DNA of 64,000 bases. It comes from Candidatus Omnitrophota bacterium (GTDB taxonomy: Bacteria; Omnitrophota; Gorgyraeia; Tantalellales; Tantalellaceae). The first letter of the stretch is position 1. Every line of letters begins with the position of its first letter. The position numbers and the translations under genes are program-made. This document shows, one piece after another, positions 31,300-61,701 of this stretch. A model generated the notes under the pieces. The model searched no databases and was not told the origin of the DNA. It was given only the letters and a program-made list of their open reading frames with translations. Location: positions 20,949-84,948 of the forward strand of contig JBARQV010000031.1 of assembly GCA_049643885.1 (NCBI GenBank), given 5' to 3'.

Positions 31300-31710
31300 G
31301 TTGGTTGTTGCAGAGCTGTTTTTCGCTCGGATGTAAGTTGCGCAGTGCGGCATATTCCCTACCAGGGCCCCTCCGCCCGGTGTGGATCCTCCCTGTACGG
31401 GAACATGCTGCACTGCGATCTTTACTTCCTCGCTCTCACCGAAAGTAAACCACAGGTGAACCGTGCCCGCTTGGAAATTTAAAGTCCTGTACGGAACGGA
31501 CCAGGCGATAAAATCCTCGATCCGTTTATCTTATTTCTAAGTTGCGCGGCAAAATGTTTGTCCTGTTTTGGACGGGGCGTAATTTTTCCGAGTGGCCACG
31601 GTTCCCGAAGGATCGAAGATCCTGAGGGAGAGCGAGGAAAAATTTTGAGTGAATTTTCCTCGGTGGGGAAAATGAACGTCCCCGGTAAAAACAGGACAAA
31701 CATTTTAAAT
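31300..31710. other. highly structured intergenic region / candidate sRNA locus
   Basis: 530 nt gap with no credible ORF; 26 bp inverted repeat (31552-31577 / 31680-31706), nested GAGGAAAA...TTTTCCTC hairpin, gcagtgcggcat / atgctgcactgc stem, and a 40 nt core shared with 59518-59556. Confidence 0.3.
31359..31399 (+). repeat. conserved 40 nt core CTACCAGGGCCCCTCCGCCCGGTGTGGATCCTCCCTGTACG (copy A)
   Basis: About 37/40 identical to the reverse complement of 59518-59556; in both loci it is embedded between locus-specific inverted-repeat arms. Confidence 0.6.
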
Positions 31711-45458: not shown

Positions 45459-45952
45459 GGAAACTCGCACTAAACACACCCCCGGACCTTTCCGTAACCT
45501 TGACAAGCGCAACATCTGACTGAAGAAATTCCTGATTTTTATTGTCTGTCTGTTTCTACCAGGAACGTCCGATTTTCCTCGGCGTTTGTTAAATGTCAAT
45601 AACGGCGAATATATGCCTTCCGTCCCGACAAAAATTCTTAACGCTTTTCGGGACATTTTGAACTGACATGGCAAAACTCGCCCCTCGTTACAGGAATACT
45701 CGGGGCTCGGACAGTTGCCCTGCCTGCACATGTCTAATAGCCACGATAACTTCAGCTTAAAATGCCCGTAAAAGCTAAATTTTTGTAATGGTCCGTCAGG
45801 CATATATTCACCGTCACGGCTATTTATCTCTCTCTGGCGCGGGTTCGGGGAATTATATTCGGCAAAAACAATAAAATCATGGGAAAGATTTTATTGTTTT
45901 GCAGAGCTAATCGCCGTGCCACTCTGACCCTTCCTTCAATTTTTGTAAGGGT

Positions 45953-46029
45953 GGGTGGCGCGACAGTGTCCGAGCACAGCACAAATGAAATGCGGATGCG
46001 CGCAGGACACTGAGCGACAGGACCCGCCC
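45953..46029. repeat. R element copy 1: ~80 nt GC-rich imperfect hairpin repeat
   Basis: GGGTGGCGCGACAGTGTCCGAGCAC...GCGCAGGACACTGAGCGACAGGACCCGCCC; about 85% identical to 61128-61206; lies 20 nt past the giant-gene stop. Confidence 0.7.
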
Positions 46030-46050
46030 TTACGATGGTCGATGGACGAA

Positions 46051-49000
46051 TTACGCTGCTATGAGTAGGCGCCTGAGCGTGGCGTAGGATTTGATAAGCC
46101 TGCTCTTGTCGTATCGCTTGGCGTTGGGCAGGAGTTTGAACACGAGAGTCTTTGCGTCTTCCTTATTAATGGACTCTATGTTCAACTCATCAAGGTTGAG
46201 TGTTTTGTTGCGTATCGTGAGCCTGTTCTTGATACCCGTTTCACCGAGGACGGATTCGCAGTAATCTGCCAGTGTTATCACTACCACCTCAGCGATCGGA
46301 AAATAAGCGTCAGGATGGAATTCTTTATGGTCTATGTACGAAGAATGCACCTGTGATTCGATGTTTCTTAAGTCTTTCCTCGACTCCGTTGACGCAAATA
46401 CAAACACTTCTGTATTTTTATCCGCGATGTGTTCAGCAAGCTCAGTAGGCATGTTTTTGGAGTCGGCCGGAACTATCACGAGATTGTTCAGTATAGCCGC
46501 GTTGGCTTCGTCCTCTTTAAGCTCCCGCAACGCTTCCATGAGGCGTCCCAGAGGATCTTCGTTTGAACCTGCGGCGACTTTCGTGTCAAACGCAAGGACG
46601 ATCTTTTTGTTGAATGTCAGCGAAAGCGCTGCCTCCCTGAGACACTTGGCGAGTTTCTCGGGGATCGTAAGGTCACGCAGGGTTTCATCCGACGTGCTTT
46701 CATCCGGAGGCAGATATCCACCGCCGAAGACATACCATTTATCACCTTTGAAATAGAGCATGTTAGCTCTTGCTAATTCTAATGCTTCTTTGAAATCTAT
46801 GATTCTTAAAACTCCTTTGGGGTCACCAGTAATATCTATAACCTCAAGAGTAGATGCTAACCCTAAATCGCGAATAGAAATAATTTTTTCTACAGCCCTT
46901 TCCCCTCTGATCACGTCTTCGTCCGAATCAAGACCAAGATCTCTAAATTTATCAATGGCCTCCTGAGGTTTCGCTATTTTAATTTTCACTGACAATGAAT
47001 CCGGGGAAAAGCTCGCGGACATAACGTTATCGTCGTTCATGGTCTCCATTTTCTTCTCTCCAAGTCCTTCGTGTTCCGTCAATGCCCTGCATGTATTAGT
47101 GGACAGGTCCCAGAATTTTACATACCCTTCCTTGTCTGCTGAAATGAACTGGTTATCGCCGTATCTTGTTATTGAAGAGACCTTGGAATCATGTCCTTTG
47201 AATAACGAAACCTCTTTAGCATCGAGGTCCCAAACTCTTATTGTCCCGTCTTTGTGGCCAGTTACAATTTTCTTGTCGGTCAGGACCGCCAGAGAAGAAA
47301 CCGATTTGAGCGTTTCGCCCGTAAGGGCCCTGCCAATAAACTTTGTATTTCTATATATCCCCACGGTACCCATGTCCTGGTGGTCATCGTTTTTTCGGCT
47401 GGTGGCTACCAGGTAACTGACCTCTCTTCTGGTTTTGCTGCCACTCTCGCGCCTCATGACGAAGTTCCCATCCGGCAATAATGCCTCTAAAGTGAGAAAA
47501 ACATTACTCCTGGATAATGCAGGAGGTGGATATGCCAAGATGCGTACCTCTCCGGATGCCGTATCTAAAATACCGATATTTCTTTCCTTTTGTATCAACT
47601 GATTAAAACCGATCTTTTCTTCGGAAAGCGGTGTAATAGAACGTATTTTTTCACTTCTATCTTTTGTGGTGGATAAATAGGTTTTAATTGTTTTCGCGGT
47701 AAAATTCATTATCTCGATCTTTGCTCTGGCATAGCTTGTGATAATATTCCCTGAAGGTGACACTTCGAGCGATTTCACTTCTCCGGGACCCTTCATAAGT
47801 ATGTAAACCTTGTTCTTGGTGATATTCCATAATCTTATTGCCCCGTCCCTATGCCCCGTTACGATCCTTTTGTCGCGAGTCTCCAGGGTATCGAGTATTG
47901 CAGTTTTTGTGATAGGACTTGCATACCCGCTGAAAGTGACTTCTATTTCCGTTTCTGTGTTTTTTGTGAATAACATTTGCGCGCTATTGTCCTCCACGGG
48001 AGGGGTCCAACGTTCTTTTGTCTCGAATTTTGAAAGAAGGTCATCCGTATAAAGAAGCCATTCACCATCACTTCTCTGGTTTACCACCGGCCCCGTTATC
48101 TTAGATTCTGCGTCAGGGTCAAGTTTAAAAGGAATGGATTTTGATTCTTGTTTAACCGGCTCCGGTTTGTCGGGTCCGGCAGAGGGTATGTCCGCCGCGC
48201 CGCGCAATGCTGCCTCGGTAGCCGTCATAATGCGGTATATGCCGTTTTCAGCTATTCTTGAGTCCCCCGCAATAATGGTTGCTTCTGAAAGTTCGTTACC
48301 GGACCACCTGAGTTTAAGGCCGGGAGACACGCGGCAGATAATATTCACCTTAAATACCGGTTCGCGCATGCTTTCCGGCCAGAGTATTTCTGAAATAGTG
48401 GATATAATATAATCTTCTGAATCCTGATCTCTTGTGAAGATAACGTCGCCTACCTGGAGAAAATCTAATCTTTCTCTAAAGAGGATTTTGTACACGCATT
48501 CGGCATTTTTGCGGATAAACTTGGAGAGTTGCACCATATCCTGGGGAATGCCTACCACAGCGGTCATGTCACCGGTAGCGATGAAACGTTTTAGATCCGT
48601 AAAGGCCTGGCTCCTTGTTTCATCAAACTGTTCTCTATCCATGATACGGTAGACGCGGCCGGATCTTAATTGATCTTCTGGGATAGAAGATTCCTTTTCA
48701 GTTCCTGGAATCGGTACGAATTCTCTGGGTCCCCGCGCGAAGAGAACTTTATAACCCAGTTTCCCGTCTTCCAGGAGTTTTGTTACAAGGAAGACATATT
48801 CCAATAGATTAGTATTAATGAAATAAATAATGTCACCCTCTTTAAGGTCGTCTGTTTTATCTATTGATGCCGCGGGGTCGACAATACACTCAGCGTTTGC
48901 TTTGATCAGCCGGTTGGCGTCAAAATTTTCGATCGGCATATCAGGCATGTTCGCGATATCGCCGGTAGCGAGAACGCGCAGGAACAGCCGGTAATCACCC

Positions 49001-52000
49001 GTTGAAGTTATCTCCCAGCGTTTTATTCTGCCCTTATTATCAAGGGTTACAACATCTCCGTCAGGCGTCAAATCCACATATTTATGAATGAGAGCGTTTT
49101 CTTCTTTTATTGTCGTGATAAGCTTTCCGTTCAGATCCCAGAGCCTTGCACAGCTATCGCCGTCGGTGGTGCAGATAATGGTATTATTTAATACCCCCGC
49201 CGAATAACAACCTCCTATAGTGATGAATTCACCCTCTAGTGCGCCTTCTATCGGTTCTCCGTCAGGGGTCCACAAAAAAGCATGAGCTTCGAATTTATCT
49301 TCATCAGCGCGAAGCCTCCCTAGAATATTTCCGTTTGGAAGAATTATGGGGGCTTCAATAAATTCGCGCCAATTGTAGCCAAACCAGTTCTCGATCTTTA
49401 AAGTTGCAATAGGGTCACCCTTGGAGGTCCAGATCCTTACTCTGTTATCACTATCAAAGGTAAGGACATTGCCGTTAGGGAGGTTTGCCATGCCTTTTGC
49501 TCCCGCCATTACTAGTTCGATTTCCATAGGTGATAATGAGACTGAAAGATTGGTTGCGTATTTATTGCTACTGTTCCACGCTCGTCCTGATGCAAATATC
49601 CACCCGATTGAAGTGGATATCACATATTTCCATACAGCATCTTTGGAAGAAATTCCCCCTTCTAATCTTGGTGATGTTTGCTCGCCGTCTTCGCTGAAAA
49701 CCGTTTGTTTTCCGTCTTTATCGTAAGTGATATATCTTCCGTCATCAAGACGCGCCGCACCGTAATAGGCCATCTCGGTATTAAGTTTTCCCGGACTCAA
49801 GTCTAATCTTAGTTTACCGTATTGGGTCCATACTCTCGCGTGTTCGTCACTATCGGATGTGAGGATCTCGCCATCAGGAAAGACTGTCGCGCCGTAGGCT
49901 CCCACTATAACTTTATCGACTTTTAAAGCGTCTAAGAGATTGCCGCCCTGGTCCCAGAGCCTTGCACTGTCGTTGTCGATGGTAAGGATATTGCCGTCAG
50001 GGAGGACTTCTATGCCCCGTTCTGCTACTGTGATGTTTCCGGACCACAATATGGCCCACCAGCTTTGCTTTTCCACCCTTTCGGTAGAGAACGCGTCTTT
50101 TATAATAACCCCGTTCTTATCCCATAGCCTGACCTTGCCTTCACTGTCCCGGGTGAGTATGTTACCGCTTGGGAGGATCTCCAGAAACGTAATTTCTCCC
50201 GTATCCTCGAATTTTCCCTTTTTCCCCGGGCCTATTTGGCCTTTCCTTGTGTATAGAGTCGGCAAAGTTCTAATATCCAAAGTTGTCGTATCCATAACAG
50301 GCTTCGGAACCACGCAGGTAAATTTGCCGGCCGGTGTATAGAAGACGATCCTGTTTTCACTGTCGCGAATTATCAAATTGCCGTTGGGGTGGACCTTAAA
50401 TGGTATGTCTCCAACGAGCATCCTGCCTGAAAATTTAAAATCAAAATCCACCACTTTTTGAGCCGTAGAAAGCGGCCCAGTCAGTTTAGGCGTTTCTTCC
50501 GACGCGGAAACTGGAGGTTCGGGTTTTTTGAATTTCAGGACGGAAATATGTCCTATCTCTGCCGCGTTGGCAACGTAGACAGTGTCATCTTTATCTATGG
50601 CCAGGCCTCGCGGTTGTTTGAATTTTCCTTGCAACTGATCTATGATCCCGTTGTCGCCAAAAGCGGGGTTCCGGCTTTTTCCATCCGGATTCAGGACTAT
50701 CATTGCTTCGGCATTACTTATGATCACGTAGATATTCCCTTTACTATCTATGCCTATGCCTTGTTTTACCACTTCCAACAGCTTTCTTTCCCCCAAGTCT
50801 TCAAAATCAAGGGGTATTGTCCCGTCATTTCCAAAAGCCGTATTAAGGCTTCCATCCGGCTTCAGAACGGATATTGTGCCGTTGCCGTCGTTGAGCACAA
50901 AGATATTGCCTTTATTATCTAATGCTATGCCGACAGGTTTACTGAATTTACCGGTTTCCTTTGGTATTGTTCCTGATGACGCGAACCCTGTTTTCAGGGT
51001 CAGATCGGGGTTAAGAACGGTCAGCGATTCGTTCCTCGCATCGACAACCAGGAAATTTCCTTCCTTGTCCCTGACCATGTCAACGGGCGTACTAAGGCCC
51101 AATGGTTCATAATCTACCAGTCCTTTATTGCCGAAATAGCGGTTTAGCTTCTTCCCATCAGGATTTAGGACGGAAAAGTTTCTTCTCCGGTTAACGCCAA
51201 TGATATTACCGGCATCATCTATAACTGCGCATATCAGCCGTTCGATCTTGCCCGATATGATCCCTTTCTTACCGAAATTTCGGTTTAGAGCTTTCTCGTC
51301 CGAATTAACAACCGACATCCAATCGCCTTCGTTACTTACGAAAATATTTCCTTGTTTGTCGACAGCTACATTGAATGGCATTACAAAGTTGCCCGTTTCC
51401 CGCGGGATCACGCTTACTTCCAGCTCGCACTTGACTGTAGTCGGAGATCCGGGTTCTGCCGGCGATTTGACGGGAGTTTTTTCTTCTCCGGGGCGTGGTT
51501 CGATCAAGGCCTCTTCGCCGTATGAATTTTTCAAAGAGTCGCCGGTTTCGCCCGGAACGCCGGGGGCTTCTGCGACGGATACGGCGGACTTTTCCACCGG
51601 GACCTCCACCCAGAACCAGGTCTTGCCTTCTTCCACATCGAAGTTTGTTTCTATGCCGAGTGAATCAAGCTCAAGTTTAGCTTTAAGGAATCCCTGGAGA
51701 GCGCGGGGTGCTGTTTTTTCGATCTCTTCCGCGTTCTCGTATTTTGTCGCGAAAATATGCCGCTGGAGGAATTTGCTGAACCCGGAATTGTAACCGATAG
51801 CTACACATAAACCCCCGTCACTCTGGCCCGCAGCTAATCCCACGAGTTTTCCGGCCTCTTGTGCTTCCTTAAGACGGTCCGGAAGGCTTTCAGGGAGAGA
51901 TTCCCAGTAATCTTTTATCACCATCCTGTCCTTTTCGTAAAGAAAAGACTCAAAATTGGCTCTTTTTGTGATCCTTACAGTTTCTTTTATCCAGCCATCC

Positions 52001-55000
52001 AGCGCTTTCTTTTTCTCGTCCGGGGCTTTGGCGACTATTTCCTTTCGTCCCGCGTTTGCCTCTTTATCTTTGCTGCGGAAATCGGGACTGGTCAATACGA
52101 AATTATCGGTAAGCTGTGAGGGATCAATGGCTTTCCCTGCGCCTATCGCGACTTCTTTTCTGAAACCGAATATCTCTTCCAGGTCGCCTATCGTGATCGC
52201 TTCGGCAGGTCTTTCCTTAAAGCGCTCGGCAATACCCGTTATTGCGGCCCTGTCCCGCTCGCCCAGTTCTTCGACTTCTTGCGCTTCTTCCCGCTTTTGA
52301 TGTTCAAAAACGATCTTTCCTTTTTCAAATTTCGCCGTTATCGTGTCGCCCCTTCGTATAGCGGCTATATTTTGTGTCATGTAAGTTGAAAGCGGGTTCT
52401 CAAAATGCCTTTTTACTGCGTCTGCCATGGGACGCGCGCCGTATTCAGCTATGTATCCTTTTTCGGCAAGCATCCTGTTGATGCTGGCTTTTTCCTCATC
52501 ATTCCGGCCGATAACGAGGTTTATTCCCTGCTTATCCCTGAAGCGTTCCATCGTTTCCGACAAGAAGAGCTGGACTATCTTTGTGAGCGAATCCAGGGGA
52601 AGCGGGTTAAATACCAGCGTGCCATCGAGGCGGTTCAGAAATTCCGGTCTGAAGAACCTTTTCACGGCATTGCTGACCGAAACGTTCATTTTTTCTATGA
52701 ACGCTTTTATCTTTTCCGGGTCACCGCTTTTGACGGCTTCTTCCATTTCTGGATATAACGATACGGGATGAGGCCTGCCGCCCTCTATCACGATGTCCTT
52801 CATTCCCAGGTTCGTGGTAAGTATGATGATCGATTCATTGAACTTCACGGTGTCGCCCCGGTTTGAGGTAAGCCTTCCGTCTTCCATCACCTGGAGAAGT
52901 ATATTCATCACATCAGCGGCCGCTTTGTCTATTTCGTCGAAAACGATAACCGTCTTCGGATATTTTTTCATATGTTCAAAAAGGTAACCCTCGCCTTCAT
53001 CATATCCCACGAATCCCGGGGGAGCGCCTATAAGCCGTGAAAGGTCTTCCCTGGTCTTGTATTCGCTCATGTCGATCCGGAGCATTTTCATGCCCAGTGT
53101 ATCGGCAAGCGTTTGAGCGGTCTGTGTCTTGCCCACCCCGGTAGGCCCGGCGAAAACAAATGCCCCAAGAGGCGCTTTCGGTGACTTCAGCCCCGCCTTG
53201 GCGACCCTTACTACACTGCTTACGGTTGAAAGCGAGTCATCCTGGCCGACTACGCGGTTCTTGAGGTTGTCCTCAAGAGCGAGGAAGTTCGCCCTTTCGT
53301 CCCGCTTTAATGAATCCGTATCGATCTCTACCTGGCCTCTCCTTGCTTCAAGCTCGCTTATAAATTCAAGCGCCTCATCCTGCCCGATGGCGGGTGACGA
53401 TTTTTCTCCCATTCTTTCCTTGGAAGCGTTGACGCGCCGGACAAGCGTCTTTATTTCATCGATCCCTAAAAGGTCTTCTTCTGAAACTTCTTCGTTCGCG
53501 GCGGCGTCCTGGAGTTCTTCTTTGAGCTGTTCCAGGCTGTCCCTGAGTTCCACCGCGACGCGCGATTCTTTCTGCCGCCTTTCGAGGGCGAGCCCGCTGA
53601 ACCACCTGTTAAGCACCTCTACCGCAGAATATGACGAGAAATACTGTTCCCACAGCCGGACCGCCACGCGCATGGCTTCAAAACTTATCTGGATACCGGG
53701 CTTGCCGTTACTTGTCTTTTTCTCTATATAATCCTTTATAAAGAGATGCAGGTTTTCCATTACGGCGCTTGCTTCCTGCGGGAGCATGTCGACCAGCGTA
53801 AAATGCTGGTCAAAGGAATCGTCTTCGGTGATCGACTGGCGCGACGATGTCATGACAAAAGAGACCGTCTTGAGTCCCCTGAACATCCTCAGGAAATACC
53901 CGAGCATGAACGGGTTTACCCTTACCTTTTCAAGCTCGTCCTTGACGTCGTCAAAATCGATCACAATGATGGTCTTGAGGCCTTTTTTCTCGCCGTCTTT
54001 TTCGATAAGCTCGGCCAGTTCTCTCATCTTTATCTCGAAATAACCCACCATGGAGAAGTAACTTTTAAGGGACTCCAGTTTCAAGCGAAGGATACGGGTA
54101 TCAGTAAATCCTGAGATCTCCCCGCGCGACGCGCGCGCGACAAAACTGTCGACCACCATCCTCTTGGCCAGGATAGAATCGCTCAGGACCAAAGGATAAT
54201 TCCTTCTTTTCTGGTTAAGGACGGATGAAAGGCGGCCGATAGTCTCGAACGGCGGGTAAAGGTCTTCTAAAACGCCTTCGGCCGCGTCAAGGCTCAGGTT
54301 CTCAAACGCCCCGTTCAGTTCCTTGCGGAGCTTCTCCTGTTCCGCTATCGACTGCTCTTGCATTTCGTCCTGCATTTTCCTGGCGCTTTCTTCATTGCCG
54401 CTTTTTCTGGTCGCCAGTATCGTCCTTTTCCTTACCAGGAGTTCAAGCTCCGTCCGTTCTTTTATCATCCTTTCCGATATTGCCTGCTTCTGCGAATCGC
54501 TGCTTGTCCTGCGCAGCTGGTTGTCCATTATCTTCTGGTTGGCCTGCAGCTCCTGTATCCTTACTTCGATCTTTTTGAGTTCAGTGTCGATATTTTCGGG
54601 ACTTAAGTCCATTTCCGGCAGGCTTTCGGGGTCGGCGATGTCTATTTCGTATTTTTTACGCATATCTTCAAGCAGTGTCTGCCGGATCTCCATTGCCCTC
54701 GAGTCTTCTTTATCTGGGACCGAGAATGATTTAGCCATGACCTGAATTGATATATTTTTGATGTCGAGCAGTTCATATAATTTCTCGGCAGGCGTTTCTT
54801 TAGTCCCTTCTTTCTTTAAACGGTCTATGGCCTTCCTGTGCCGTGCCTGTTCTGTTTCCTGTTTTTCTTTTTTGGTCTTAAATATGGCTTTTCCGTCTGA
54901 AACGTCAGCTTCTATTGTTTCTCCTTTATTTATAGAGTCGGCAAGGATAAGGTCAGCCAGCGGGGCCAGCACTATCCTTTTTAAAGACCTTTCCAGGGGC

Positions 55001-58000
55001 CTGGCGCCGTTCGTGACATCGTATCCTTCCTCCAGGACCTTTTCGCGAAGAGTTTGACTCAGGCGAAGTTCCCCGTAACCTTCCGCGGAAAGGAGTTTAT
55101 TGACGTTCTTGAGCTTTATATCCAGTATTTTTTCCAGGTCTTCCTTTGAAAGAGGATTAAAATTGATTATGTTCGGCAGGCCTATGCGGCCGATCAATTC
55201 CGGCCGCAAGCCGGCTTTTACGGCTGCAATGACTTCATCTCTTACTTTCCGCCTTAGGGCTTCCAGTTCTTCCAGCGCCTCTTCTCCTCCCCGGTCCTTG
55301 AGCATGGCGATCTTGACATACTTTTCGTTGAGCGCTCTTGTTCTCTCCGGGTCGGCCGCATACCCTTCGCTGAAACCTATATTCGAAGTCATTATTATGA
55401 TAGTGTTCCTGAAGTTGGCCATTCTTCCCTTCCCGTCGCGAAGCTCGCCGTTATTAAGGACCTGCAGGAGCAGGTCGAGCGTCTTGGGATGGGCTTTTTC
55501 CACCTCATCCAGAAGGACGACGCTGTATGGCCTTTTCAGGACGTGATTGGTAAGTTGCCCGCCTTCTTCGTACCCGACGTATCCCGGGGGCGAGCCGATC
55601 AGTTTATATGAATCGCTCTGGTTCATGTATTCACTCATGTCGATGCGCACCATGGCGTCTTCCGAGCCGAACATGTGCCGGGCAAGGGAACGCGCGAATT
55701 CCGTTTTTCCCACACCGGTAGGCCCGACAAGGAGGAATGCCCCGATAGGCAGGTTCCCGCTCGCGCCGATCACTCTTCTGCGCGAGAATGCCTGGTAGCT
55801 GTCATTGATGGCTTTGTCCTGGCCGATAAGCATGCCCTGGAGTTTAGGGACATAATCCTTGAGAAGCTCGTCTTCGGAAGCAAGTATCTCGTAGAGCGGG
55901 ACGCCGCTGTCTTCGGATATCTGTTTAGCTATTGTCTCTATAGTTATTTCCCATTTTTTGCTTTTGGTGATGTCTTCTATGAATTGCCGGTTCTCTTCCA
56001 GCTCCTTCTCGACCGCTTCCTGCTCGCTCAAAAGCCTGTCCAATGAAAGTTCCAGGAATTTTTGCTGCTCAGCGTCTTTCTCGTCCGCGCCGCACTTTAT
56101 CAGTTCTTTTGATGTCCTCAGTATCCTTTCCAGTATATCCGCTCTTTTTGCTTCAAGCCTTGATGCGGTCGTGAACGCGCGCGTGATTATCCTGTCGATG
56201 ACTTCCTGAAGTTTGTTTACCGAAAGCCCCTGTGGATAATGCTTCTGGCTCAGTCTGAGGGCTTCATCGAGGATCTTTCTTGGAACCTGGACTTTTACGC
56301 CTTCGGGGATGATGTCTTTATACGCGGAATTTATCCTGCGGGTGAAACTCTTCGCGATCCTCAACAGGTCATATTCCGGGGGCGCCCGCATGTCCAGGAC
56401 AGAAAACTTCGGTTCAAGGCGCTTGTCTTTCGCGAGGACAGTATCATAAAGCTGCGGATTGCCCAGGATGACCACGCTTATATTTTCGTTTTCGATTGCT
56501 TCCTTCAGCTGGAAATACAAGCTGGCCATCATGCCCGATTTCATTTTCTGGACGTCATAAAAATCCTGGAAGTTCAGGACAAGGACTGATCTTTCGTTCT
56601 TGCGCGCGGCCTTTAACGCGCTTGTTAGCTTGGCCAGTTCCATTTCAAGCTGGCCGGGTATAGCGAGATTCTCGGCGAATCGGGCGGTATTTATCTCGAA
56701 AAATTTCGCTTTTCTCAAGTTATCAAGCCCTGTTGAAGTCTCCCCTTTGCGCACTACTATTCCTTCTATCAATCCCTGGCATGCGATAGGGTCGCCTACG
56801 ATCATGACGTTGTTCATCTCCGGGTCCGTGATCTGGTCGTTCAGAAAAGCCGCGTAATTCGCCACGTAATACGTGTCGTCTATCTTTCCGTCTTCAACCA
56901 GTTCATCCAGGTCGTTGGTGTATTGTTTGATGTAATCGGGATTCGCTTGACCCTGGCCTTGAGGCCCGGCAGGAACACTCTCGCCTAATTCGAGCAGGAT
57001 CAATATAGGCGCAGCTATTATCCCCGCTAAGAACATCCATTCAAGAGGCATGATCCCGGCTGTTGTCGCGTTCACTCCCAGGTCAAGGGTCATCCCGAAG
57101 CCATGCTTAAGTGTAAAATAAGCCCCGATGCCGATCCACCATAACATATGATGGTGGTGATGGCCGCTCAGATGCTGTTTTAAGTGCGCCAGTTTTTGCG
57201 CGAGAATGGATCCTGTGGTTTGTTGGGCAGCCCCGTCGGTTCCGTTAGGTTTATCGTCACTTTCGCCGGGCGTGATCTCCTTGCCGGCTTTTTCGTATAT
57301 CCTTTCAAGGGCTCCCCTGCCCCTGTCGCTTCTTAAAACCTTGCCTATCGCGGCCGGGTTATCCTGGACCAGGACTTTTTGCTGGATAGCCTGGATCACC
57401 GCGCCCATTACTTCCTCAAAGTTCTTGTCTTTTTTATCGGACCTTAAATAACGGACAACCGTCTTTATCGTTACTTCCCTTATATCGTGCTTCTCCTCAT
57501 CGCTTACCTCGGTTTCCAGGTCATCTTCGCCCTCTTCTTCAAGGGCGTCGGCAAGTTCGTCCAGTTCTTCGCCCATCTCTTCGACGGCTTTCTCGACCTC
57601 TTCGACGATCCTGTCGGCATCTTCTTCGTTTTCTTCCTTTTCTTTTTCCCGTCTCAATGCTTCCAGATAGTACATCCTGTCGCATATGCTTAATATTGAT
57701 GGGACCAGAACGGCAAGAAGAATGACCACTATCGGCAGGCCGCCTATCATTGACGCGCCGGCCGTGTGGCAACCGGTCATGAATGAGCCGCCTATAACGG
57801 CCAGGATAAGCCCAAGAAGGGTCTTTCCGGGGCCGGATTTCTTTTCTTTAGCGGGTATTTTCTGGTCTATAAAGATCCTTAGGGCTTTGCCCAATAATCC
57901 CTTACTCATCCCCTTTCCGGGAAAATGGTCCGGAAAGAACTCCTGCTGGGCAAGGATAGCGTGGTAATGGCTAAGAGTCGGGCAGATAAGTTCATGCAGA

Positions 58001-58842
58001 AGATACTCGTCGATCAGATGCGGGCGGCACATATTTTCAAGTTCCGCGATAAAGTCAGTGGCAAGGAAGATCTCCTTATCTCCGGGGTAATGACGTCCCA
58101 GGAAGAAATCATCTTTTCCTTCTACGATAGATTTTAACCCATAGATCGTGTATCCACCGCTTTCTATTTTTTCTATTAATTCTTCAAGCGCCCTTCTGTG
58201 TTCAGGAGCCAGGCTGAATAGGCTGACGCCTTGAGTGAATTTTTCAAGCAGGCTTACCAGTCGTTCTTTATACTCGTCGGTTATGTCTTCTTTCGGGGCT
58301 TGTTCGAACTTTTTAGCGGACAATTCGCCCTGATGGATAAACCCGTCGCCCGTTTTCCCTTCTTCTGCTGTTTTTTCATCTATTTCGGGCTTGCTTTCGG
58401 GTTCTGCGGGTTCAGCCGCGGCCGGCTTTTCGCCTTTCTTTCTTATCGCGGTATCAAAATCGTTTTCAGGGTCTATCACGACTTCGAATTCAATAAAATC
58501 TTTTTTGCCCGGGATGATCCATTTTCCGGTTTCGTCCTGCCTCTTTTCATTGCTGTCAAAGAATAAATGCACTTTTTCACCGTTCACTTCAGGAAAAAGG
58601 TGTTCAGTGATCTCTTCAAAGGGTTTATGGAGGCCGCGCAAGTAAACCTGCACGGCAACCTGGACCGAAAAAAGATTTGCGGGTTCCCAAAAGTTGCTGG
58701 CAGCACTAAGATACATATTTGCCGCGCCTCTCTGGAATATGTCAGGATTCGCCCATGTAACGTTGTTAACAGTGAACAGGCACACTATCACCACGGCTAT
58801 TATCTTTATCCATGCCCTATTCCTGTTTTTCGCGTTTTCCAT
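46051..58842 (-). CDS. giant membrane-anchored multidomain protein (~4263 aa): 2x ClpB-like AAA+ modules (degenerate NBD1 + intact NBD2), NHL beta-propeller, multiple WD40-like repeats, unknown C-terminal domain
   Basis: Start ATG 58842 with SD AAGGTGA (the longest ORF runs to 59061, but that extension passes through the leader hairpins and repeats). Signal-anchor AWIKIIAVVIVCLFTV plus two TM hairpins. Degenerate NBD1 NNVMIVGDPIACQGL. Walker A GPTGVGKT at nt ~55702-55725 and ~53130-53153; Walker B VVLLDEVEKAHP and VIVFDEIDKAA; GARPLER and GARPMAD sensor-2. NHL repeats at nt ~50450-51450. WD40-like repeats (e.g. HRDGAIRLWN, HKDGTIRVWD) at nt ~47100-50400. Confidence 0.85.
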   Translation of the reverse strand: MENAKNRNRAWIKIIAVVIVCLFTVNNVTWANPDIFQRGAANMYLSAASNFWEPANLFSVQVAVQVYLRGLHKPFEEITEHLFPEVNGEKVHLFFDSNEKRQDETGKWIIPGKKDFIEFEVVIDPENDFDTAIRKKGEKPAAAEPAEPESKPEIDEKTAEEGKTGDGFIHQGELSAKKFEQAPKEDITDEYKERLVSLLEKFTQGVSLFSLAPEHRRALEELIEKIESGGYTIYGLKSIVEGKDDFFLGRHYPGDKEIFLATDFIAELENMCRPHLIDEYLLHELICPTLSHYHAILAQQEFFPDHFPGKGMSKGLLGKALRIFIDQKIPAKEKKSGPGKTLLGLILAVIGGSFMTGCHTAGASMIGGLPIVVILLAVLVPSILSICDRMYYLEALRREKEKEENEEDADRIVEEVEKAVEEMGEELDELADALEEEGEDDLETEVSDEEKHDIREVTIKTVVRYLRSDKKDKNFEEVMGAVIQAIQQKVLVQDNPAAIGKVLRSDRGRGALERIYEKAGKEITPGESDDKPNGTDGAAQQTTGSILAQKLAHLKQHLSGHHHHHMLWWIGIGAYFTLKHGFGMTLDLGVNATTAGIMPLEWMFLAGIIAAPILILLELGESVPAGPQGQGQANPDYIKQYTNDLDELVEDGKIDDTYYVANYAAFLNDQITDPEMNNVMIVGDPIACQGLIEGIVVRKGETSTGLDNLRKAKFFEINTARFAENLAIPGQLEMELAKLTSALKAARKNERSVLVLNFQDFYDVQKMKSGMMASLYFQLKEAIENENISVVILGNPQLYDTVLAKDKRLEPKFSVLDMRAPPEYDLLRIAKSFTRRINSAYKDIIPEGVKVQVPRKILDEALRLSQKHYPQGLSVNKLQEVIDRIITRAFTTASRLEAKRADILERILRTSKELIKCGADEKDAEQQKFLELSLDRLLSEQEAVEKELEENRQFIEDITKSKKWEITIETIAKQISEDSGVPLYEILASEDELLKDYVPKLQGMLIGQDKAINDSYQAFSRRRVIGASGNLPIGAFLLVGPTGVGKTEFARSLARHMFGSEDAMVRIDMSEYMNQSDSYKLIGSPPGYVGYEEGGQLTNHVLKRPYSVVLLDEVEKAHPKTLDLLLQVLNNGELRDGKGRMANFRNTIIIMTSNIGFSEGYAADPERTRALNEKYVKIAMLKDRGGEEALEELEALRRKVRDEVIAAVKAGLRPELIGRIGLPNIINFNPLSKEDLEKILDIKLKNVNKLLSAEGYGELRLSQTLREKVLEEGYDVTNGARPLERSLKRIVLAPLADLILADSINKGETIEADVSDGKAIFKTKKEKQETEQARHRKAIDRLKKEGTKETPAEKLYELLDIKNISIQVMAKSFSVPDKEDSRAMEIRQTLLEDMRKKYEIDIADPESLPEMDLSPENIDTELKKIEVRIQELQANQKIMDNQLRRTSSDSQKQAISERMIKERTELELLVRKRTILATRKSGNEESARKMQDEMQEQSIAEQEKLRKELNGAFENLSLDAAEGVLEDLYPPFETIGRLSSVLNQKRRNYPLVLSDSILAKRMVVDSFVARASRGEISGFTDTRILRLKLESLKSYFSMVGYFEIKMRELAELIEKDGEKKGLKTIIVIDFDDVKDELEKVRVNPFMLGYFLRMFRGLKTVSFVMTSSRQSITEDDSFDQHFTLVDMLPQEASAVMENLHLFIKDYIEKKTSNGKPGIQISFEAMRVAVRLWEQYFSSYSAVEVLNRWFSGLALERRQKESRVAVELRDSLEQLKEELQDAAANEEVSEEDLLGIDEIKTLVRRVNASKERMGEKSSPAIGQDEALEFISELEARRGQVEIDTDSLKRDERANFLALEDNLKNRVVGQDDSLSTVSSVVRVAKAGLKSPKAPLGAFVFAGPTGVGKTQTAQTLADTLGMKMLRIDMSEYKTREDLSRLIGAPPGFVGYDEGEGYLFEHMKKYPKTVIVFDEIDKAAADVMNILLQVMEDGRLTSNRGDTVKFNESIIILTTNLGMKDIVIEGGRPHPVSLYPEMEEAVKSGDPEKIKAFIEKMNVSVSNAVKRFFRPEFLNRLDGTLVFNPLPLDSLTKIVQLFLSETMERFRDKQGINLVIGRNDEEKASINRMLAEKGYIAEYGARPMADAVKRHFENPLSTYMTQNIAAIRRGDTITAKFEKGKIVFEHQKREEAQEVEELGERDRAAITGIAERFKERPAEAITIGDLEEIFGFRKEVAIGAGKAIDPSQLTDNFVLTSPDFRSKDKEANAGRKEIVAKAPDEKKKALDGWIKETVRITKRANFESFLYEKDRMVIKDYWESLPESLPDRLKEAQEAGKLVGLAAGQSDGGLCVAIGYNSGFSKFLQRHIFATKYENAEEIEKTAPRALQGFLKAKLELDSLGIETNFDVEEGKTWFWVEVPVEKSAVSVAEAPGVPGETGDSLKNSYGEEALIEPRPGEEKTPVKSPAEPGSPTTVKCELEVSVIPRETGNFVMPFNVAVDKQGNIFVSNEGDWMSVVNSDEKALNRNFGKKGIISGKIERLICAVIDDAGNIIGVNRRRNFSVLNPDGKKLNRYFGNKGLVDYEPLGLSTPVDMVRDKEGNFLVVDARNESLTVLNPDLTLKTGFASSGTIPKETGKFSKPVGIALDNKGNIFVLNDGNGTISVLKPDGSLNTAFGNDGTIPLDFEDLGERKLLEVVKQGIGIDSKGNIYVIISNAEAMIVLNPDGKSRNPAFGDNGIIDQLQGKFKQPRGLAIDKDDTVYVANAAEIGHISVLKFKKPEPPVSASEETPKLTGPLSTAQKVVDFDFKFSGRMLVGDIPFKVHPNGNLIIRDSENRIVFYTPAGKFTCVVPKPVMDTTTLDIRTLPTLYTRKGQIGPGKKGKFEDTGEITFLEILPSGNILTRDSEGKVRLWDKNGVIIKDAFSTERVEKQSWWAILWSGNITVAERGIEVLPDGNILTIDNDSARLWDQGGNLLDALKVDKVIVGAYGATVFPDGEILTSDSDEHARVWTQYGKLRLDLSPGKLNTEMAYYGAARLDDGRYITYDKDGKQTVFSEDGEQTSPRLEGGISSKDAVWKYVISTSIGWIFASGRAWNSSNKYATNLSVSLSPMEIELVMAGAKGMANLPNGNVLTFDSDNRVRIWTSKGDPIATLKIENWFGYNWREFIEAPIILPNGNILGRLRADEDKFEAHAFLWTPDGEPIEGALEGEFITIGGCYSAGVLNNTIICTTDGDSCARLWDLNGKLITTIKEENALIHKYVDLTPDGDVVTLDNKGRIKRWEITSTGDYRLFLRVLATGDIANMPDMPIENFDANRLIKANAECIVDPAASIDKTDDLKEGDIIYFINTNLLEYVFLVTKLLEDGKLGYKVLFARGPREFVPIPGTEKESSIPEDQLRSGRVYRIMDREQFDETRSQAFTDLKRFIATGDMTAVVGIPQDMVQLSKFIRKNAECVYKILFRERLDFLQVGDVIFTRDQDSEDYIISTISEILWPESMREPVFKVNIICRVSPGLKLRWSGNELSEATIIAGDSRIAENGIYRIMTATEAALRGAADIPSAGPDKPEPVKQESKSIPFKLDPDAESKITGPVVNQRSDGEWLLYTDDLLSKFETKERWTPPVEDNSAQMLFTKNTETEIEVTFSGYASPITKTAILDTLETRDKRIVTGHRDGAIRLWNITKNKVYILMKGPGEVKSLEVSPSGNIITSYARAKIEIMNFTAKTIKTYLSTTKDRSEKIRSITPLSEEKIGFNQLIQKERNIGILDTASGEVRILAYPPPALSRSNVFLTLEALLPDGNFVMRRESGSKTRREVSYLVATSRKNDDHQDMGTVGIYRNTKFIGRALTGETLKSVSSLAVLTDKKIVTGHKDGTIRVWDLDAKEVSLFKGHDSKVSSITRYGDNQFISADKEGYVKFWDLSTNTCRALTEHEGLGEKKMETMNDDNVMSASFSPDSLSVKIKIAKPQEAIDKFRDLGLDSDEDVIRGERAVEKIISIRDLGLASTLEVIDITGDPKGVLRIIDFKEALELARANMLYFKGDKWYVFGGGYLPPDESTSDETLRDLTIPEKLAKCLREAALSLTFNKKIVLAFDTKVAAGSNEDPLGRLMEALRELKEDEANAAILNNLVIVPADSKNMPTELAEHIADKNTEVFVFASTESRKDLRNIESQVHSSYIDHKEFHPDAYFPIAEVVVITLADYCESVLGETGIKNRLTIRNKTLNLDELNIESINKEDAKTLVFKLLPNAKRYDKSRLIKSYATLRRLLIAA

Positions 58843-58857
58843 ATTGTTGTCACCTTT

Positions 58858-58883
58858 TAGCTCGATAAATCGAGCAACTACAT
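58858..58883. promoter_or_regulatory. palindromic hairpin motif copy 1 (GCTCGA-TAAA-TCGAGCAACTAC) in the giant-gene leader
   Basis: Part of a 29 nt direct repeat ttttagctcgataaatcgagcaactacat that occurs twice, 47 nt apart, directly upstream of the RBS. Confidence 0.6.
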
Positions 58884-58902
58884 TTGTTGTATCGGGTCGT
58901 TT

Positions 58903-58930
58903 TTTAGCTCGATAAATCGAGCAACTACAT
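58903..58930. promoter_or_regulatory. palindromic hairpin motif copy 2
   Basis: Identical 29 nt repeat. Confidence 0.6.
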
Positions 58931-58932
58931 CC

Positions 58933-59002
58933 CACGAACGACGAACTACGACCGACTACCGACGATCGACGAACCACGATCGACGAAATACGACCGACGA
59001 TT
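58933..59002. repeat. 10x tandem heptanucleotide repeat (ACGANCG)
   Basis: acgaacg acgaact acgaccg actaccg acgatcg acgaacc acgatcg acgaaat acgaccg acgattc; perfect 7 nt periodicity over 70 nt in the giant-gene leader. Confidence 0.8.
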
Positions 59003-59003
59003 C

Positions 59004-59059
59004 CGGTCTGGGGTGGTATTAACCAGCGCAGGAGGTTAATACCACCTTTATACCAGACC
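59004..59059. other. leader hairpin (imperfect 22 bp inverted repeat) with AGGAGG in the loop
   Basis: ccggtctggggtggtattaacc ... ggttaataccacctttataccagacc. Confidence 0.5.
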
Positions 59060-59063
59060 ATGT

Positions 59064-59085
59064 ATCCCTTCGCTTCGCTCAGGAT
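59064..59085. repeat. 19 nt motif CCTTCGCTTCGCTCAGGAT (copy 2; copy 1 at 37888-37910)
   Basis: Exact 19 nt match between two intergenic regions. Confidence 0.5.
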
Positions 59086-59095
59086 AATTCGACTA

Positions 59096-59127
59096 GCGGT
59101 TTGCGTTCGCTGTGCTTCGCAAACCGC
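59096..59127. other. perfect 10 bp inverted repeat gcggtttgcg / cgcaaaccgc hairpin
   Basis: Seen directly in the sequence. Confidence 0.5.
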
Positions 59128-59136
59128 AGTCTCATT

Positions 59137-59178
59137 AAAAAAAAGCCAGGCTGACCTTCTTTAGGTAGCCTGGCTTTC
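59137..59178 (-). terminator. intrinsic terminator on the minus strand (A8 - agccaggct...agcctggct)
   Basis: 9 bp GC-rich stem followed by T8 on the minus strand; would terminate a minus-strand transcript starting near 59580. Confidence 0.6.
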
Positions 59179-59499
59179 TAGAAAACAATTTCATCTAGAC
59201 CCTGCGCTTTGCGCCCCTACGTCACCATAGGTTTGCCCCGTTAGAGATTTATCCCGTTAGAGTTTATTTTCTAATGGGATGTTCTCCCTAACGTGGCTCG
59301 CCCCATCATCTCTAACGGGGTTTGCCTTTATCTAGAATTGTATATTATTCTACCACAAATTAAAGTTAGGTCAAGAGAAAGTAAGTTAGCTATTTTATTC
59401 TTAACGGGATGTAAGTTATTTATTCATGTGAGTTAGGGAGGTGTAATTGCCGGATGCACAATACACGTACGAGTTTCTATTTGTGGAACGAAGCATTAA

Positions 59500-59575
59500 C
59501 GGGATATGGGGGTGTTTCGTACGGGAGGATCCACACCAGGCGGAGGGGCCCGGTAGAAACACCCCCATATCCCGT
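59500..59575. repeat. hairpin B carrying conserved 40 nt core copy B (59518-59556) between 19 bp arms
   Basis: cgggatatgggggtgtttcg [core] gaaacacccccatatcccg; the core reverse-complement matches 31359-31399. Confidence 0.6.
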
Positions 59576-59691
59576 ATTAAATTGAGCACAAACCTGTTCT
59601 GATTTTAAAACTAAAACTGTACCCTTTTCTCTGGGGACGGTTTCTAAATTGATCCTAGACCCACCCCTATGTAAATACGTATAATATACAC

Positions 59692-61011
59692 GTGAAAATA
59701 CGGGCTGAAATGAGGAAGATCTTTACGAACGTTTTTGTATTCCTGGTAGTTTTTATTCTGATCTCGGAATGCGCCGATCTTTTCTACGTTTATAAGAACA
59801 CCACCGATATGCCCGGAAAATTCGGATGGGAAGACCGGGCTGACTTCAGCGTGTACTGGGAAGCAGGGTTCAATCTATCTCAAAGGGACATGTCCCACCG
59901 GGACAGGTCAGATTACCCGGTTTACGACCTGAACGAGCCCTTTCATCACTTCAGGTACTCCCCTTTCTTCGCGTTCCTCATGATCCCCTTCGGCATGATC
60001 CGTTATTCGCGTGAAGCTTTGTTCTGGTGGTACTTGCTCCTTAATATCCTGTTCCTGGCATCATTTTTTCTATTTTCAAAAGAACTCCGGTTGGATTTTA
60101 AGGCACGAGAGGGCCAAAGATGTATTGTCATGTGGGCTGCTTTTATCGGGACCCTGAGATACTACCTGATGAACATGAGGCAGGGTCAGACGGATGTCAT
60201 AGTGGCTTTTCTTTTCGCGCTTCTTCTCGTATCCTATCTCAGGGATCGGGATCTTGTATCCGGCCTTATCATTGCCTTGATACTCCAGATGAAACCGTCA
60301 TTTTTTCCTGTTTTGATCTATTTTCTATTCATAAGAAAGATCAGGATCGCCGTATACACGGTTATTATATTCGCCTTGCTGCAGCTTTTGCCGGCGTTCC
60401 TGGTCGGTATTAACGAAGCAGTTATGCTTTTCAAGGAGTGGATCGATATGCTGCGGATGTCGGTCCCGTCGCAGGTCCTTAATTTCAAGAACTATTCCGT
60501 GCCTTATGCCGTAACCGTCCAGCTCATGAAGATCAATGTGATAAGGGCTATTATATCTCCGAGGGCGCTTATCTATGCACTGAGCGCGATATCCGCCCTG
60601 GCTGTTTACGCGCTTACCGCCCGGTTCAGGCGAAGGGTCCTTGAACGTGACGAGAAACGATTCAGGTATCTGGAAATATCTATACTTATAATGACCTCCC
60701 TTCTCTTTTCTTCTTTGACCTGGGAAGCACATTTTACGGCTCTTCTAGTTCCTATCGGGACAGCTGTCTATTTCGCGATGAATAGCAGTAAACAAAAAGT
60801 AATTTACGCCGCCTTGGGCGCGTACCTGGCGCTAAGCCTTTTTGGGACGGATCTTACGACGTGGATCCCCGTAATTGGAGGCGTGAGATTCATTAATATT
60901 TCAATAGCGACGTTTTTCCTGGCATTCGCGGTGGTGTTGGGGTACAGGGACAACATTCTGTCCACCGTCGACAGTCCACAGTCCACGGCGTCAGGTAGAG
61001 GTAGAGATTGA
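59692..61011 (+). CDS. polytopic membrane protein, GT-C-type glycosyltransferase-like (DUF2029/GT87-like)
   Basis: About 12 TM helices; FHHFRYSPFFAFLMIPF motif region typical of DUF2029; the only plus-strand gene. Confidence 0.5.
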   Translation: MKIRAEMRKIFTNVFVFLVVFILISECADLFYVYKNTTDMPGKFGWEDRADFSVYWEAGFNLSQRDMSHRDRSDYPVYDLNEPFHHFRYSPFFAFLMIPFGMIRYSREALFWWYLLLNILFLASFFLFSKELRLDFKAREGQRCIVMWAAFIGTLRYYLMNMRQGQTDVIVAFLFALLLVSYLRDRDLVSGLIIALILQMKPSFFPVLIYFLFIRKIRIAVYTVIIFALLQLLPAFLVGINEAVMLFKEWIDMLRMSVPSQVLNFKNYSVPYAVTVQLMKINVIRAIISPRALIYALSAISALAVYALTARFRRRVLERDEKRFRYLEISILIMTSLLFSSLTWEAHFTALLVPIGTAVYFAMNSSKQKVIYAALGAYLALSLFGTDLTTWIPVIGGVRFINISIATFFLAFAVVLGYRDNILSTVDSPQSTASGRGRD

Positions 61012-61022
61012 TGACGCGGGGA
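60993..61022. repeat. direct repeat copy 1 (includes the last codons and stop of the 59692..61011 gene)
   Basis: aggtagaggtagagattgatgacgcgggga; about 27/30 identical to 61235-61266. Confidence 0.65.
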
Positions 61023-61234
61023 AATTTTCCTTCTGTAAAAACAATAAAATCAAAGGGACCCATACTGGATCCTCGATACTCAAGCGCGTAGCGTAAAGAG
61101 CATAGCGCAGAGCGGTCTGCGGTGGGCGGGCGGCGCTACAGTGTCCGAGCACCGCACAAGCCAGTGGCGCGGAGGCGCGCAGGACACTGAGCGACAGGAC
61201 CCGCCCACTAGATGCTCCACGAACCACACCAGAT
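61023..61234. mobile_element. MITE-like ~212 bp insert flanked by ~30 bp direct repeats and carrying R element copy 2
   Basis: Bracketed by direct repeats 60993-61022 and 61235-61266; contains the structured R2 repeat; no ORF. Confidence 0.3.
61128..61206. repeat. R element copy 2
   Basis: GGGCGGCGCTACAGTGTCCGAGCACCGCACAAGCCAGTGGCGCGGAGGCGCGCAGGACACTGAGCGACAGGACCCGCCC. Confidence 0.7.
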
Positions 61235-61266
61235 AGAGGTATAGGTAGAGATTGATGACGCGGGGA
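61235..61266. repeat. direct repeat copy 2
   Basis: agaggtataggtagagattgatgacgcgggga. Confidence 0.65.
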
Positions 61267-61291
61267 GTTGCCCGATAAATCGGGCAACTAC
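61267..61291. promoter_or_regulatory. palindromic hairpin motif copy 3 (GTTGCCCGA-TAAA-TCGGGCAAC) with a compensatory change
   Basis: Perfect 9 bp palindrome; relative to copies 1 and 2, the T/A pair is replaced by C/G on both arms; overlaps the stop of the 61288..61701 gene. Confidence 0.55.
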
Positions 61292-61701
61292 TTGATGACC
61301 CGGAAGGAATGGAAGCTTCTTCTGCTCTTTCCGACGCCTCGGTAAACTTGCCGCAATGACCAGGTATAGACCTTCCCCGGCAGGAACATTTCCGCGTCCA
61401 GAGAGATCTCATATTTATTGCCTGGAACGCGTTCTTTGAATAACAGTGTGCGTTCGAGCATGTCAAAGCCTTCGTATAACCTGAAGTCGTAATATTTTCT
61501 TCCGAGACGCAAGCCCTCATGCGGGCTCCACTTGAATTCAAGTGCTTCTTTTCCCGAGAGGTTTACTTCTGTTGTGGTAGGCGAGAGCAGTCTGGGCATT
61601 GGGACATAATCGGCCCTGCCACCGTAGCTTGACATGCTTACCTGGGCGTAAGCATAGGTGGCTAGTAATAAGATAGCTGCGGAAAATATCGCCTTTTTCA
61701 T
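61288..61701 (-). CDS. secreted protein, hypothetical
   Basis: Signal peptide MKKAIFSAAILLLATYAYAQ. Confidence 0.45.
   Translation of the reverse strand: MKKAIFSAAILLLATYAYAQVSMSSYGGRADYVPMPRLLSPTTTEVNLSGKEALEFKWSPHEGLRLGRKYYDFRLYEGFDMLERTLLFKERVPGNKYEISLDAEMFLPGKVYTWSLRQVYRGVGKSRRSFHSFRVIK

Follow-up and report, generated by a model that had tools for sequence, protein, structure and literature searches.

Hairpin repeats in the leader of a giant AAA+ protein gene of an Omnitrophota bacterium are probably GTAG-tagged repetitive extragenic palindromes

The DNA described here is a stretch of 64,000 nucleotides from a Candidatus Omnitrophota bacterium (GenBank assembly GCA_049643885.1, contig JBARQV010000031.1), hereafter referred to as the window. 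Its minus strand carries a giant gene for an AAA+ protein, and the leader of this gene begins with a cyclic di-GMP (c-di-GMP) riboswitch. Two copies of a short hairpin are located in this leader, and a third copy sits between a 137-aa open reading frame (ORF) and the convergent gene of a GT87 glycosyltransferase (Table 1). An earlier note on this DNA had described the three copies and favored a conserved RNA stem-loop or a symmetric protein-binding site as their function. Our analysis points to a different assignment: the three hairpins are probably copies of a GTAG-tagged repetitive extragenic palindrome (REP) and not a regulator site specific to the giant gene. REP-type repeats are selfish or semi-domesticated intergenic DNA that occurs in many bacterial phyla.

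Table 1. Positions of the hairpins and of the surrounding features in the window
Feature	Position	Strand	Remarks
Giant ORF	46051..58842	-	4263 aa; two ClpB-like AAA_2 modules, WD40 and NHL repeats
ATG of giant gene	58842..58840	-	start codon
Shine-Dalgarno GGTGA	58854..58850	-	giant gene
REP-1 (proximal)	58860..58881	-	GTAG-TT-GCTCGA-TTTA-TCGAGC; in giant-gene 5' leader
Spacer of head-to-tail dimer	58882..58906	-	25 nt, TAAAAAACGACCCGATACAACAAAT; occurs once in the window
REP-2 (distal)	58907..58928	-	same sequence as REP-1; forms a head-to-tail (HT) dimer with REP-1
Riboswitch terminator hairpin and U-run	~59160..59115	-	directly after the aptamer
c-di-GMP-I riboswitch aptamer	59247..59161	-	Rfam, 53.6 bits (gathering score 35)
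Sigma-70-like promoter	59374..59347	-	predicted; head of giant-gene leader
REP-3	61266..61291	-	GTAG-TT-GCCCGA-TTTA-TCGGGC-AACT; stem extended to 10 bp
TAG stop of 137-aa ORF (61288..61701)	61288..61290	-	supplied by the GTAG head of REP-3
REP hairpin as single-stranded DNA oligonucleotide			GTAGTTGCCCGATTTATCGGGC

The pattern proposed in the earlier note matches the window three times, against 0.00 matches expected in shuffled sequences. Over 29 nt, copy 1 (58857-58881) and copy 2 (58904-58928) have the same sequence. Their starts are separated by 47 nt, and both lie immediately upstream of the ribosome-binding site of the giant gene as had been stated. Both read TTAGCTCGA-TAAA-TCGAGCAAC-TAC. 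Because their left arm is TTAGCTCGA and not GTTGCTCGA, the GTTGC arm and the 9-bp stem ascribed to these two copies have to be corrected: perfect pairing is limited to the 6 bp of GCTCGA/TCGAGC, which corresponds to an RNA hairpin of -8.4 kcal/mol. Copy 3 (61266-61291; GTTGCCCGA-TAAA-TCGGGCAAC-TAC) is a perfect palindrome with a stem of 10 bp and -16.6 kcal/mol. The replacement of a T-A pair by C-G on both arms of this copy is real and compensatory, and so is its location at the 3' end of the 61288..61701 gene, where it overlaps the TAG stop codon at 61290..61288. Read on the minus strand, which is the gene-sense strand, all three copies take the form GTAG-TT-GCYCGA-TTTA-TCGRGC, with an unpaired GTAG head, two T residues and a 6/4/6 hairpin. 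In REP-3 the AG of the tag is also able to pair in the extended stem. Since copy 3 is found unchanged in five other assemblies, and since an ENA assembly likewise shows the pair of copies 1 and 2, we can eliminate assembly artefacts as the origin of the copies; duplication during assembly, against which the earlier note had cautioned, is contradicted by this recurrence.

The hairpin is not confined to this locus. An exact scan for GTAGTTGCNCGATTTATCGNGC that covered one genome per GTDB species, and whose counts are lower bounds, found at least 120 DNA stretches from about 55 assemblies with at least 15 phylum-level labels. A rough estimate based on the 20 specified bases predicts ~1 match by chance. 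The matches listed carry the labels Poribacteria, Omnitrophota, Elusimicrobia/Endomicrobiia, Zixibacteria, Nitrospirae, Nitrospinota, Chloroflexi (Dehalococcoidia, Anaerolineae), Planctomycetes/Brocadiales, Ignavibacteria, Acidobacteria (Terriglobales), WOR-3, Desantisbacteria, Doudnabacteria, Actinomycetota and 'Proteobacteria', where the taxon names are those on the deposited records. Among the same matches, single assemblies contribute up to at least 12 separate loci, and the flanks of the hairpin vary from locus to locus. The copies therefore represent independent insertions and not one conserved region. The pattern occurs in only two viral contigs, and we rejected a phage element on this ground.

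Members of this family that lie outside the scan pattern have the same head, a TTTA or TTCA loop and many different complementary stems (GCCCAA/TTGGGC, GCCCCA/TGGGGC, GCCTGA/TCAGGC, CGGCGA/TCGCCG, TGCCGA/TCGGCG, GCAGGC/GCCTGC and others). The REP of Pseudomonas putida reads GTAG-GA-GCGGG-TTTA-CCCGC on the tag strand, and one type of E. coli REP has a TTCA loop, so that head, spacer and loop are arranged as in the present family. In the listed loci, 314 perfect 6/4/6 hairpins stand behind GTAG and two further bases, compared to 2-5 behind each of five control tetranucleotide heads. The head is present on the hairpin strand of the three window copies and of every family member. Since the loci used for these statistics were ascertained by one exact pattern, we also selected sites in a non-circular manner, by GTAG and TTYA at the right distance only, and excluded all matches to the pattern. 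A perfect 6-bp stem is found in 98 of these 205 sites and a stem with at most one mismatch in 123, whereas the control heads give no perfect stem. In an alignment of 148 distinct sequences, 68.8% of the cells pair, whereas shuffled sequences reach 42.3% and slid partners 30-41%; the score for covariation amounts to 0.60 (0.21 for the comparison), and all six pairs change on both sides. This covariation across the whole repeat family supports the earlier statement that the hairpin is selected and did not arise by chance. Because the stems covary under a constant head and loop, it is the hairpin that is selected: the sequence of the stem is free, while head and loop are fixed. Copies with a single mismatch contain G.T wobbles on the tag strand more often than A.C (18 versus 7), a mild hint that the hairpin of the tag strand is the selected form.

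In the genomes, these hairpins are mostly extragenic. With crude ORF calls at the foreign loci, 117 of 132 copies in the listed loci fall outside ORFs, although ~85% of the sequence is ORF. Among 129 copies, 71 are located at most 120 nt downstream of a same-sense stop codon (30 of them at most 30 nt), and only 22 precede a same-sense start codon. Positions after stop codons are occupied in sense by 71 copies and in antisense by 43, and spacers between co-directional genes by 45 and 24, so that both orientations occur. Seven ORFs of at least 80 codons, among them the one at REP-3, end with the TAG of such a head. Of the same 129 copies, 52 have an inverted head-out partner (HH, median spacer 11 nt), 24 are tail-to-tail (TT), 25 are HT and 57 are single. 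Some genomes also contain longer composite units around the hairpin pair, for example with outer inverted repeats in loci of Omnitrophota JAZDOX01. An all-against-all BLAST comparison of 843 neighboring ORFs returned generic housekeeping clusters only, with no recurrent neighbor gene. Therefore, the element does not mark a regulon and does not accompany a particular gene.

Copy number also differs between close relatives. The leader of the giant gene contains two copies in the window and in a second locus (L121), and only one in strain L129 (GCA_049645405.1), which is ~99.5% identical. The difference is a 47-nt indel that corresponds to one REP (REP-2) and the spacer TAAAAAACGACCCGATACAACAAAT. 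A second HT module of REP, spacer and REP was located in L121 at 2998/3044, ~5 kb beyond the end of the window. This module (2998-3065) fills the whole gap between the stop codon of a GDSL-lipase gene and the Shine-Dalgarno sequence of a gene for an LTXXQ protein, and its spacer, AAAAAACAGCCTGATATAACGAAT, resembles TAAAAAACGACCCGATACAACAAAT in 19 of 24 bases as read by eye. Because the module recurs in L121 and strain L129 has one copy, we can conclude that the REP-spacer-REP unit is itself a compound repeat, and that upstream of the giant gene its dosage is variable. In both modules of this genome the second REP is directly followed by an A-run and a ribosome-binding site. No GTAG hairpin was detected in 34 kb from three Omnitrophota relatives with a GH3 protein of 70-76% identity and preserved upstream synteny. 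A search for orthologous leaders with the N-terminus of the giant protein returned only one protein, which is 99% identical.

Two observations on the giant gene itself emerged from these comparisons. In strain L129 (2292-8131) the gene is called as two ORFs of 487 aa and 1381 aa, with no indel relative to the window. This implies that the split results either from a nonsense point difference or from faulty assembly; some strains may thus have an inactivated giant gene. In the Omnitrophota relative L131 (GCA_042564445.1, 72% GH3 identity), the GH3 gene is directly followed by a giant gene (>1913 aa, cut by the contig end). No GTAG hairpins were seen at this site (2862-3157), which has a spacer of 295 nt. 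Therefore, lineage-specific additions or rearrangements account for the 137-aa gene, the GT87 gene and the leader with the riboswitch in the window.

The family described above corresponds well to the GTAG-tagged REPs defined by Di Nocera, De Gregorio, and Rocco (2013, BMC Genomics 14:522, PMC3733652). Those repeats carry an unpaired GTAG (GTRG) at one of their ends; their stems measure 6-13 bp and show complementary changes, and their loops are short. The GTAG-1 and GTAG-2 families, which include the Pseudomonas REPs, also have an unpaired dinucleotide between tag and stem. The repeats occur as HH, TT and HT dimers with a preference for HH, are found near the 3' ends of ORFs, and supply TAG stop codons through their tag (PMC3733652). 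The hairpins studied here show the corresponding features: the stem of 6 bp, the TTYA loop and palindromy that is maintained by complementary changes are those of a GTAG REP. In particular, they share with members of the GTAG-1 and GTAG-2 families the GTAG tag with its dinucleotide, covarying stems of 6-9 bp, a loop of 2-4 nt, the occurrence as singletons and as HH, TT and HT dimers, the patchy distribution, the extragenic location near ORF 3' ends and the provision of TAG stops by the tag. In contrast, members of GTAG-1 and GTAG-2 are found mainly in Gammaproteobacteria and are linked to RAYT, while the present family, near whose sampled copies no RAYT was found, is hosted by Omnitrophota and many candidate and sediment phyla, and has a near-identical core in at least 15 phyla. 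Neither the main text nor the five supplementary files of PMC3733652 contain the present sequence type.

Other known hairpins are less similar. The REP/BIME elements of E. coli, which are processed by TnpA-REP (RayT; PDB 4ER8), also have a GTAG head and a hairpin that is recognized as single-stranded DNA in E. coli, and they share the alternating orientation in clusters, the location in 3' untranslated regions (UTRs) and reported effects on mRNA decay and translation. Unlike the minimal 22-nt hairpins described here, which reside in a genome of ~47% GC with no RayT homologue seen nearby, E. coli REPs are ~35 nt long with GC-rich, bulged stems. REPINs (Bertels and Rainey 2011), which are mobilized by RAYT, resemble the mostly inverted pairs of REPs with short spacers in other genomes and the behavior of these pairs as compound repeats. 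In the present family, however, the paired arms usually differ in their stems and fold separately without a single long hairpin, and the pair in the window is head-to-tail. A literature search for the string returned a single match, the unrelated terminator of the Yfr1 small RNA, GCCCGATTTATCGGGCTTT (PMC2190773). Its 16-nt stem-loop is identical, but the hairpins described here lack the U-tract, carry the GTAG head, occur in both orientations and are also found upstream of genes.

By analogy to characterized REPs (Nunvar 2010; Messing 2012; Ton-Hoang 2012; Di Nocera 2013), the hairpin would form in single-stranded DNA. The hairpin and its GTAG guide would then be recognized by a RAYT/TnpA-REP transposase of the HUH Y1 type encoded elsewhere in the genome, and cleavage and rejoining of DNA by this enzyme would allow copies to spread or to be lost. 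[quoted passage not shown] The effects of individual copies on a stop codon or on a leader would be secondary in this process. The mobilizing enzyme itself is inferred from the family.

Several observations weigh against this assignment. Using tblastn with E. coli TnpA-REP (identical to PDB 4ER8), IS200 TnpA, IS608 TnpA and an approximate sequence of an RGNNRQ-type Y1 transposase, complemented by regular expressions for HUH and Y motifs, we found no RAYT or Y1 transposase in the window, in 120 listed genome loci or in 17 further loci. This negative result is weak because a sample of 8-kb windows easily misses a single-copy gene. A protein search with RayT returned only Enterobacteriaceae among the 120 matches listed. 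A scan of metagenomes for two tail-to-tail REPs that are 501-561 nt apart and could enclose a gene of ~500-560 nt identified five loci without a transposase; by translation, these loci hold small housekeeping genes of pilin-like, APRT-like and CcmE-like products, each bracketed by REP dimers. Moreover, the source organism has only five copies in the ~72 kb examined, all of them within a stretch of ~10 kb that spans the window end. HT dimers, as formed by REP-1 and REP-2 and by the module in L121, are rare in most genomes (PMC3733652). Finally, REP consensus motifs are usually lineage-specific with low similarity between distant taxa (PMC12306157), and this makes a near-identical core across phyla atypical. 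RAYT/REP systems are described as mostly vertically inherited (bioRxiv 10.1101/2022.05.22.493013).

This last aspect is the most unusual one of the family. The hairpins have an identical GTAGTT head, closing GA/TC pair and TTTA loop under at least 15 phylum labels. Part of this sameness results from the way the loci were ascertained, and part from the small sequence space of a 6-bp stem. Even so, the sameness points either to a recognition protein under strong constraint that passes from phylum to phylum, or to a different factor that maintains the hairpin. A bolder version of this idea, to which we assign a small probability and which presupposes that the missing RAYT is more than a gap in sampling, holds that the near identity of GTAG-TT-GCNNGA-TTYA-TCNNGC in at least 15 phyla, including members of the candidate phyla radiation (CPR) and Omnitrophota, with no RAYT near the sampled copies, reflects a RAYT/REP pair that crosses phyla freely or a widely conserved factor that acts independently of a transposase. 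Independent of this question, the Poribacteria loci (L005, L014, L023, L049, L072 and others) contain further GTAG-headed families beside the present one, for example GTAGGGAACAACGATCGTTGTTCCCTAC with 34 copies in the sampled loci. These families form BIME-like mosaics with at least three different hairpins.

The same evidence bears on an explanation without any dedicated transposase. In that case the hairpin would be a selected RNA or DNA structure that is bound by a widespread host factor, for example as an mRNA 3'-end stabilizer, an RNase site or a site for a nucleoid protein. The near-identical head, loop and closing pairs across phyla, the lack of RAYT in ~137 loci, the same-sense bias just after stop codons and the excess of G.T wobbles on the GTAG strand are all consistent with this idea. 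Nevertheless, we regard it as unlikely: the copies frequently occur in either orientation and typically as inverted dimers, the distribution among close relatives is patchy with copy numbers that vary between strains, neither a U-tract nor a common gene context was found, and the sampling behind the missing RAYT was not designed to catch a single-copy transposase gene.

The function suggested by the earlier note, a cis-regulatory element specific to the giant gene, has to be judged by the structure of the leader. Such an element could be an operator for a helix-turn-helix protein, or an RNA stem-loop that is part of a riboswitch platform or of translational control. The placement of the hairpins agrees with this function, since two identical copies lie in the transcribed leader between the c-di-GMP-I riboswitch and the ribosome-binding site, and the proximal copy is separated by 5 nt from the Shine-Dalgarno sequence and by 17 nt from the ATG. 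However, a terminator that belongs to the riboswitch itself directly follows its aptamer, and between this terminator and the hairpins the leader continues for ~270 nt of structured sequence including a 14-nt tandem repeat. Folding of the leader, as the earlier note had proposed, predicts that REP-1 and REP-2 leave the Shine-Dalgarno sequence unsequestered. A T-run after the hairpin is absent from all three copies on both strands, and none of the copies was recognized by the terminator scan. The ~99.5% identical strain manages with one copy, and the nearest sampled Omnitrophota relatives lack the hairpin. The element is also found at the 3' end of an unrelated gene, upstream of another gene and in unrelated contexts in at least 15 phyla, with no recurrent neighbor that could encode a cognate regulator. 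The conserved parts are the asymmetric GTAG head and the loop, whereas the stem bases vary; this is the opposite of what characterizes an operator. We conclude that control of the giant gene by a dedicated element is very improbable.

Some further features of this region were recorded. No Rfam family covers the hairpins at the gathering score or at E<=10, and the riboswitch is the only genuine match nearby. A GA-cis RNA family aligns after the riboswitch terminator (59057-59135, minus strand) below threshold (21.9 bits, gathering score 34.7), probably by chance. The tandem repeat of 14 nt occupies 58932-58998, just upstream of REP-2, with four CGACGAWC-like copies. As read from the sequences, it contains ~5 differences in 70 nt relative to L129, compared to ~0.3-0.5% elsewhere. 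Beyond REP-3, the terminator scan identified a terminator-like hairpin at 61072..61056.

The possibility that the hairpins are ends or relics of another non-autonomous transposon (MITE) or of an IS200/IS605-type element, moved by a different enzyme, is more remote. The longer composite units in some genomes, such as the outer inverted repeats of JAZDOX01, could be read in this way, as could the other repeat families of the window and the duplication-flanked insert of 245 nt beside REP-3. Yet no recurrent transposase family adjoins the copies, the GTAG hairpin stays the same from lineage to lineage whereas its flanks change, and the IS200/IS605 TnpA probes matched nothing. A chance palindrome or an assembly duplication, for which only the shortness of the stem could be put forward, is practically eliminated by the 0.00 matches expected in shuffles, by six independent assemblies with copies and by hundreds of copies elsewhere. 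We also rejected a CRISPR repeat (no arrays), CIRCE or another known operator (wrong spacing, asymmetry), a palindromic operator for a transcription factor (variable stem bases, asymmetric head, no recurrent neighbor family), an intrinsic terminator (no U-run) and an IHF site (copy 3 only, imperfect).

If the three hairpins are GTAG-tagged REPs, their local effects can be described as follows. In E. coli, reported effects of REPs that lie close to stop codons or within 3' UTRs concern the termination of translation and the decay of mRNA. As RNA, REP-3 would fold into a stable hairpin that directly follows the stop of the 137-aa gene. As parts of an mRNA leader, REP-1 and REP-2 may mildly affect the stability or the translation of the transcript without being an essential, conserved control element. 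Since the Shine-Dalgarno sequence is unsequestered in the predicted fold and one copy is dispensable in the sister strain, we take these two hairpins to be passengers whose effect on the leader is modest at most.

The window contains other repeats in the vicinity of these hairpins. A second family, represented at 61120-61224 and 45945-46030 on the minus strand, is an imperfect hairpin of ~95 nt (GGGCGGGTCCTGTCGCTCAGTGTCC...GGACACTG...CCCRCCC) with fold z-scores of -3.2 and -6.9 and no Rfam match. Both copies lie behind a minus-strand gene, at a distance of 20-60 nt from its stop codon, and have TGATTTTATTGTTTTT in common after the hairpin. Within this element, at 61177-61180, the ends of four independent short-read contigs were located. 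The GT87 stop codon is part of a direct repeat of 24-36 nt (AGGTAGAGATTGATGACGCGGGGA) that is found at 60985-61022 and 61230-61267 and brackets the segment of ~245 nt that carries the long hairpin. This segment looks like an insertion with an unusually long target duplication; without this segment, which moved the two apart, REP-3 would be 12 nt from the GT87 stop codon. Between the GT87 gene and the giant-gene promoter, there is also a hairpin with a stem of 27 bp (59499-59575). Its loop of 29 nt (GGGAGGATCCACACCAGGCGGAGGGGCCC) recurs 28 kb away at 31365-31393 in inverted form with 97% complementarity.

The assignment of the hairpins as REPs has several consequences. It removes a false lead, since they should not be taken for a dedicated switch of the giant gene, and a search for a cognate regulator is unnecessary. 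The c-di-GMP switch that heads a giant gene for an AAA+/WD40/NHL-propeller protein in Omnitrophota may merit a study of its own. For the annotation of metagenome-assembled genomes of this kind, it matters that REP-type repeats supply stop codons and create small indels in leaders, and that the ~95-nt hairpin family in the same intergenic region as REP-3 breaks short-read assemblies. GTAG-tagged REPs are extended to Omnitrophota and to candidate phyla for which the searched literature had none, and a sequence type that is common to these phyla bears on the question as to whether REP/RAYT systems are strictly vertical. Should the bolder explanation of the cross-phylum core be true, either RAYT/REP would move between phyla far more than the picture of vertically inherited, lineage-specific systems allows, or a widely conserved factor would maintain the hairpin.

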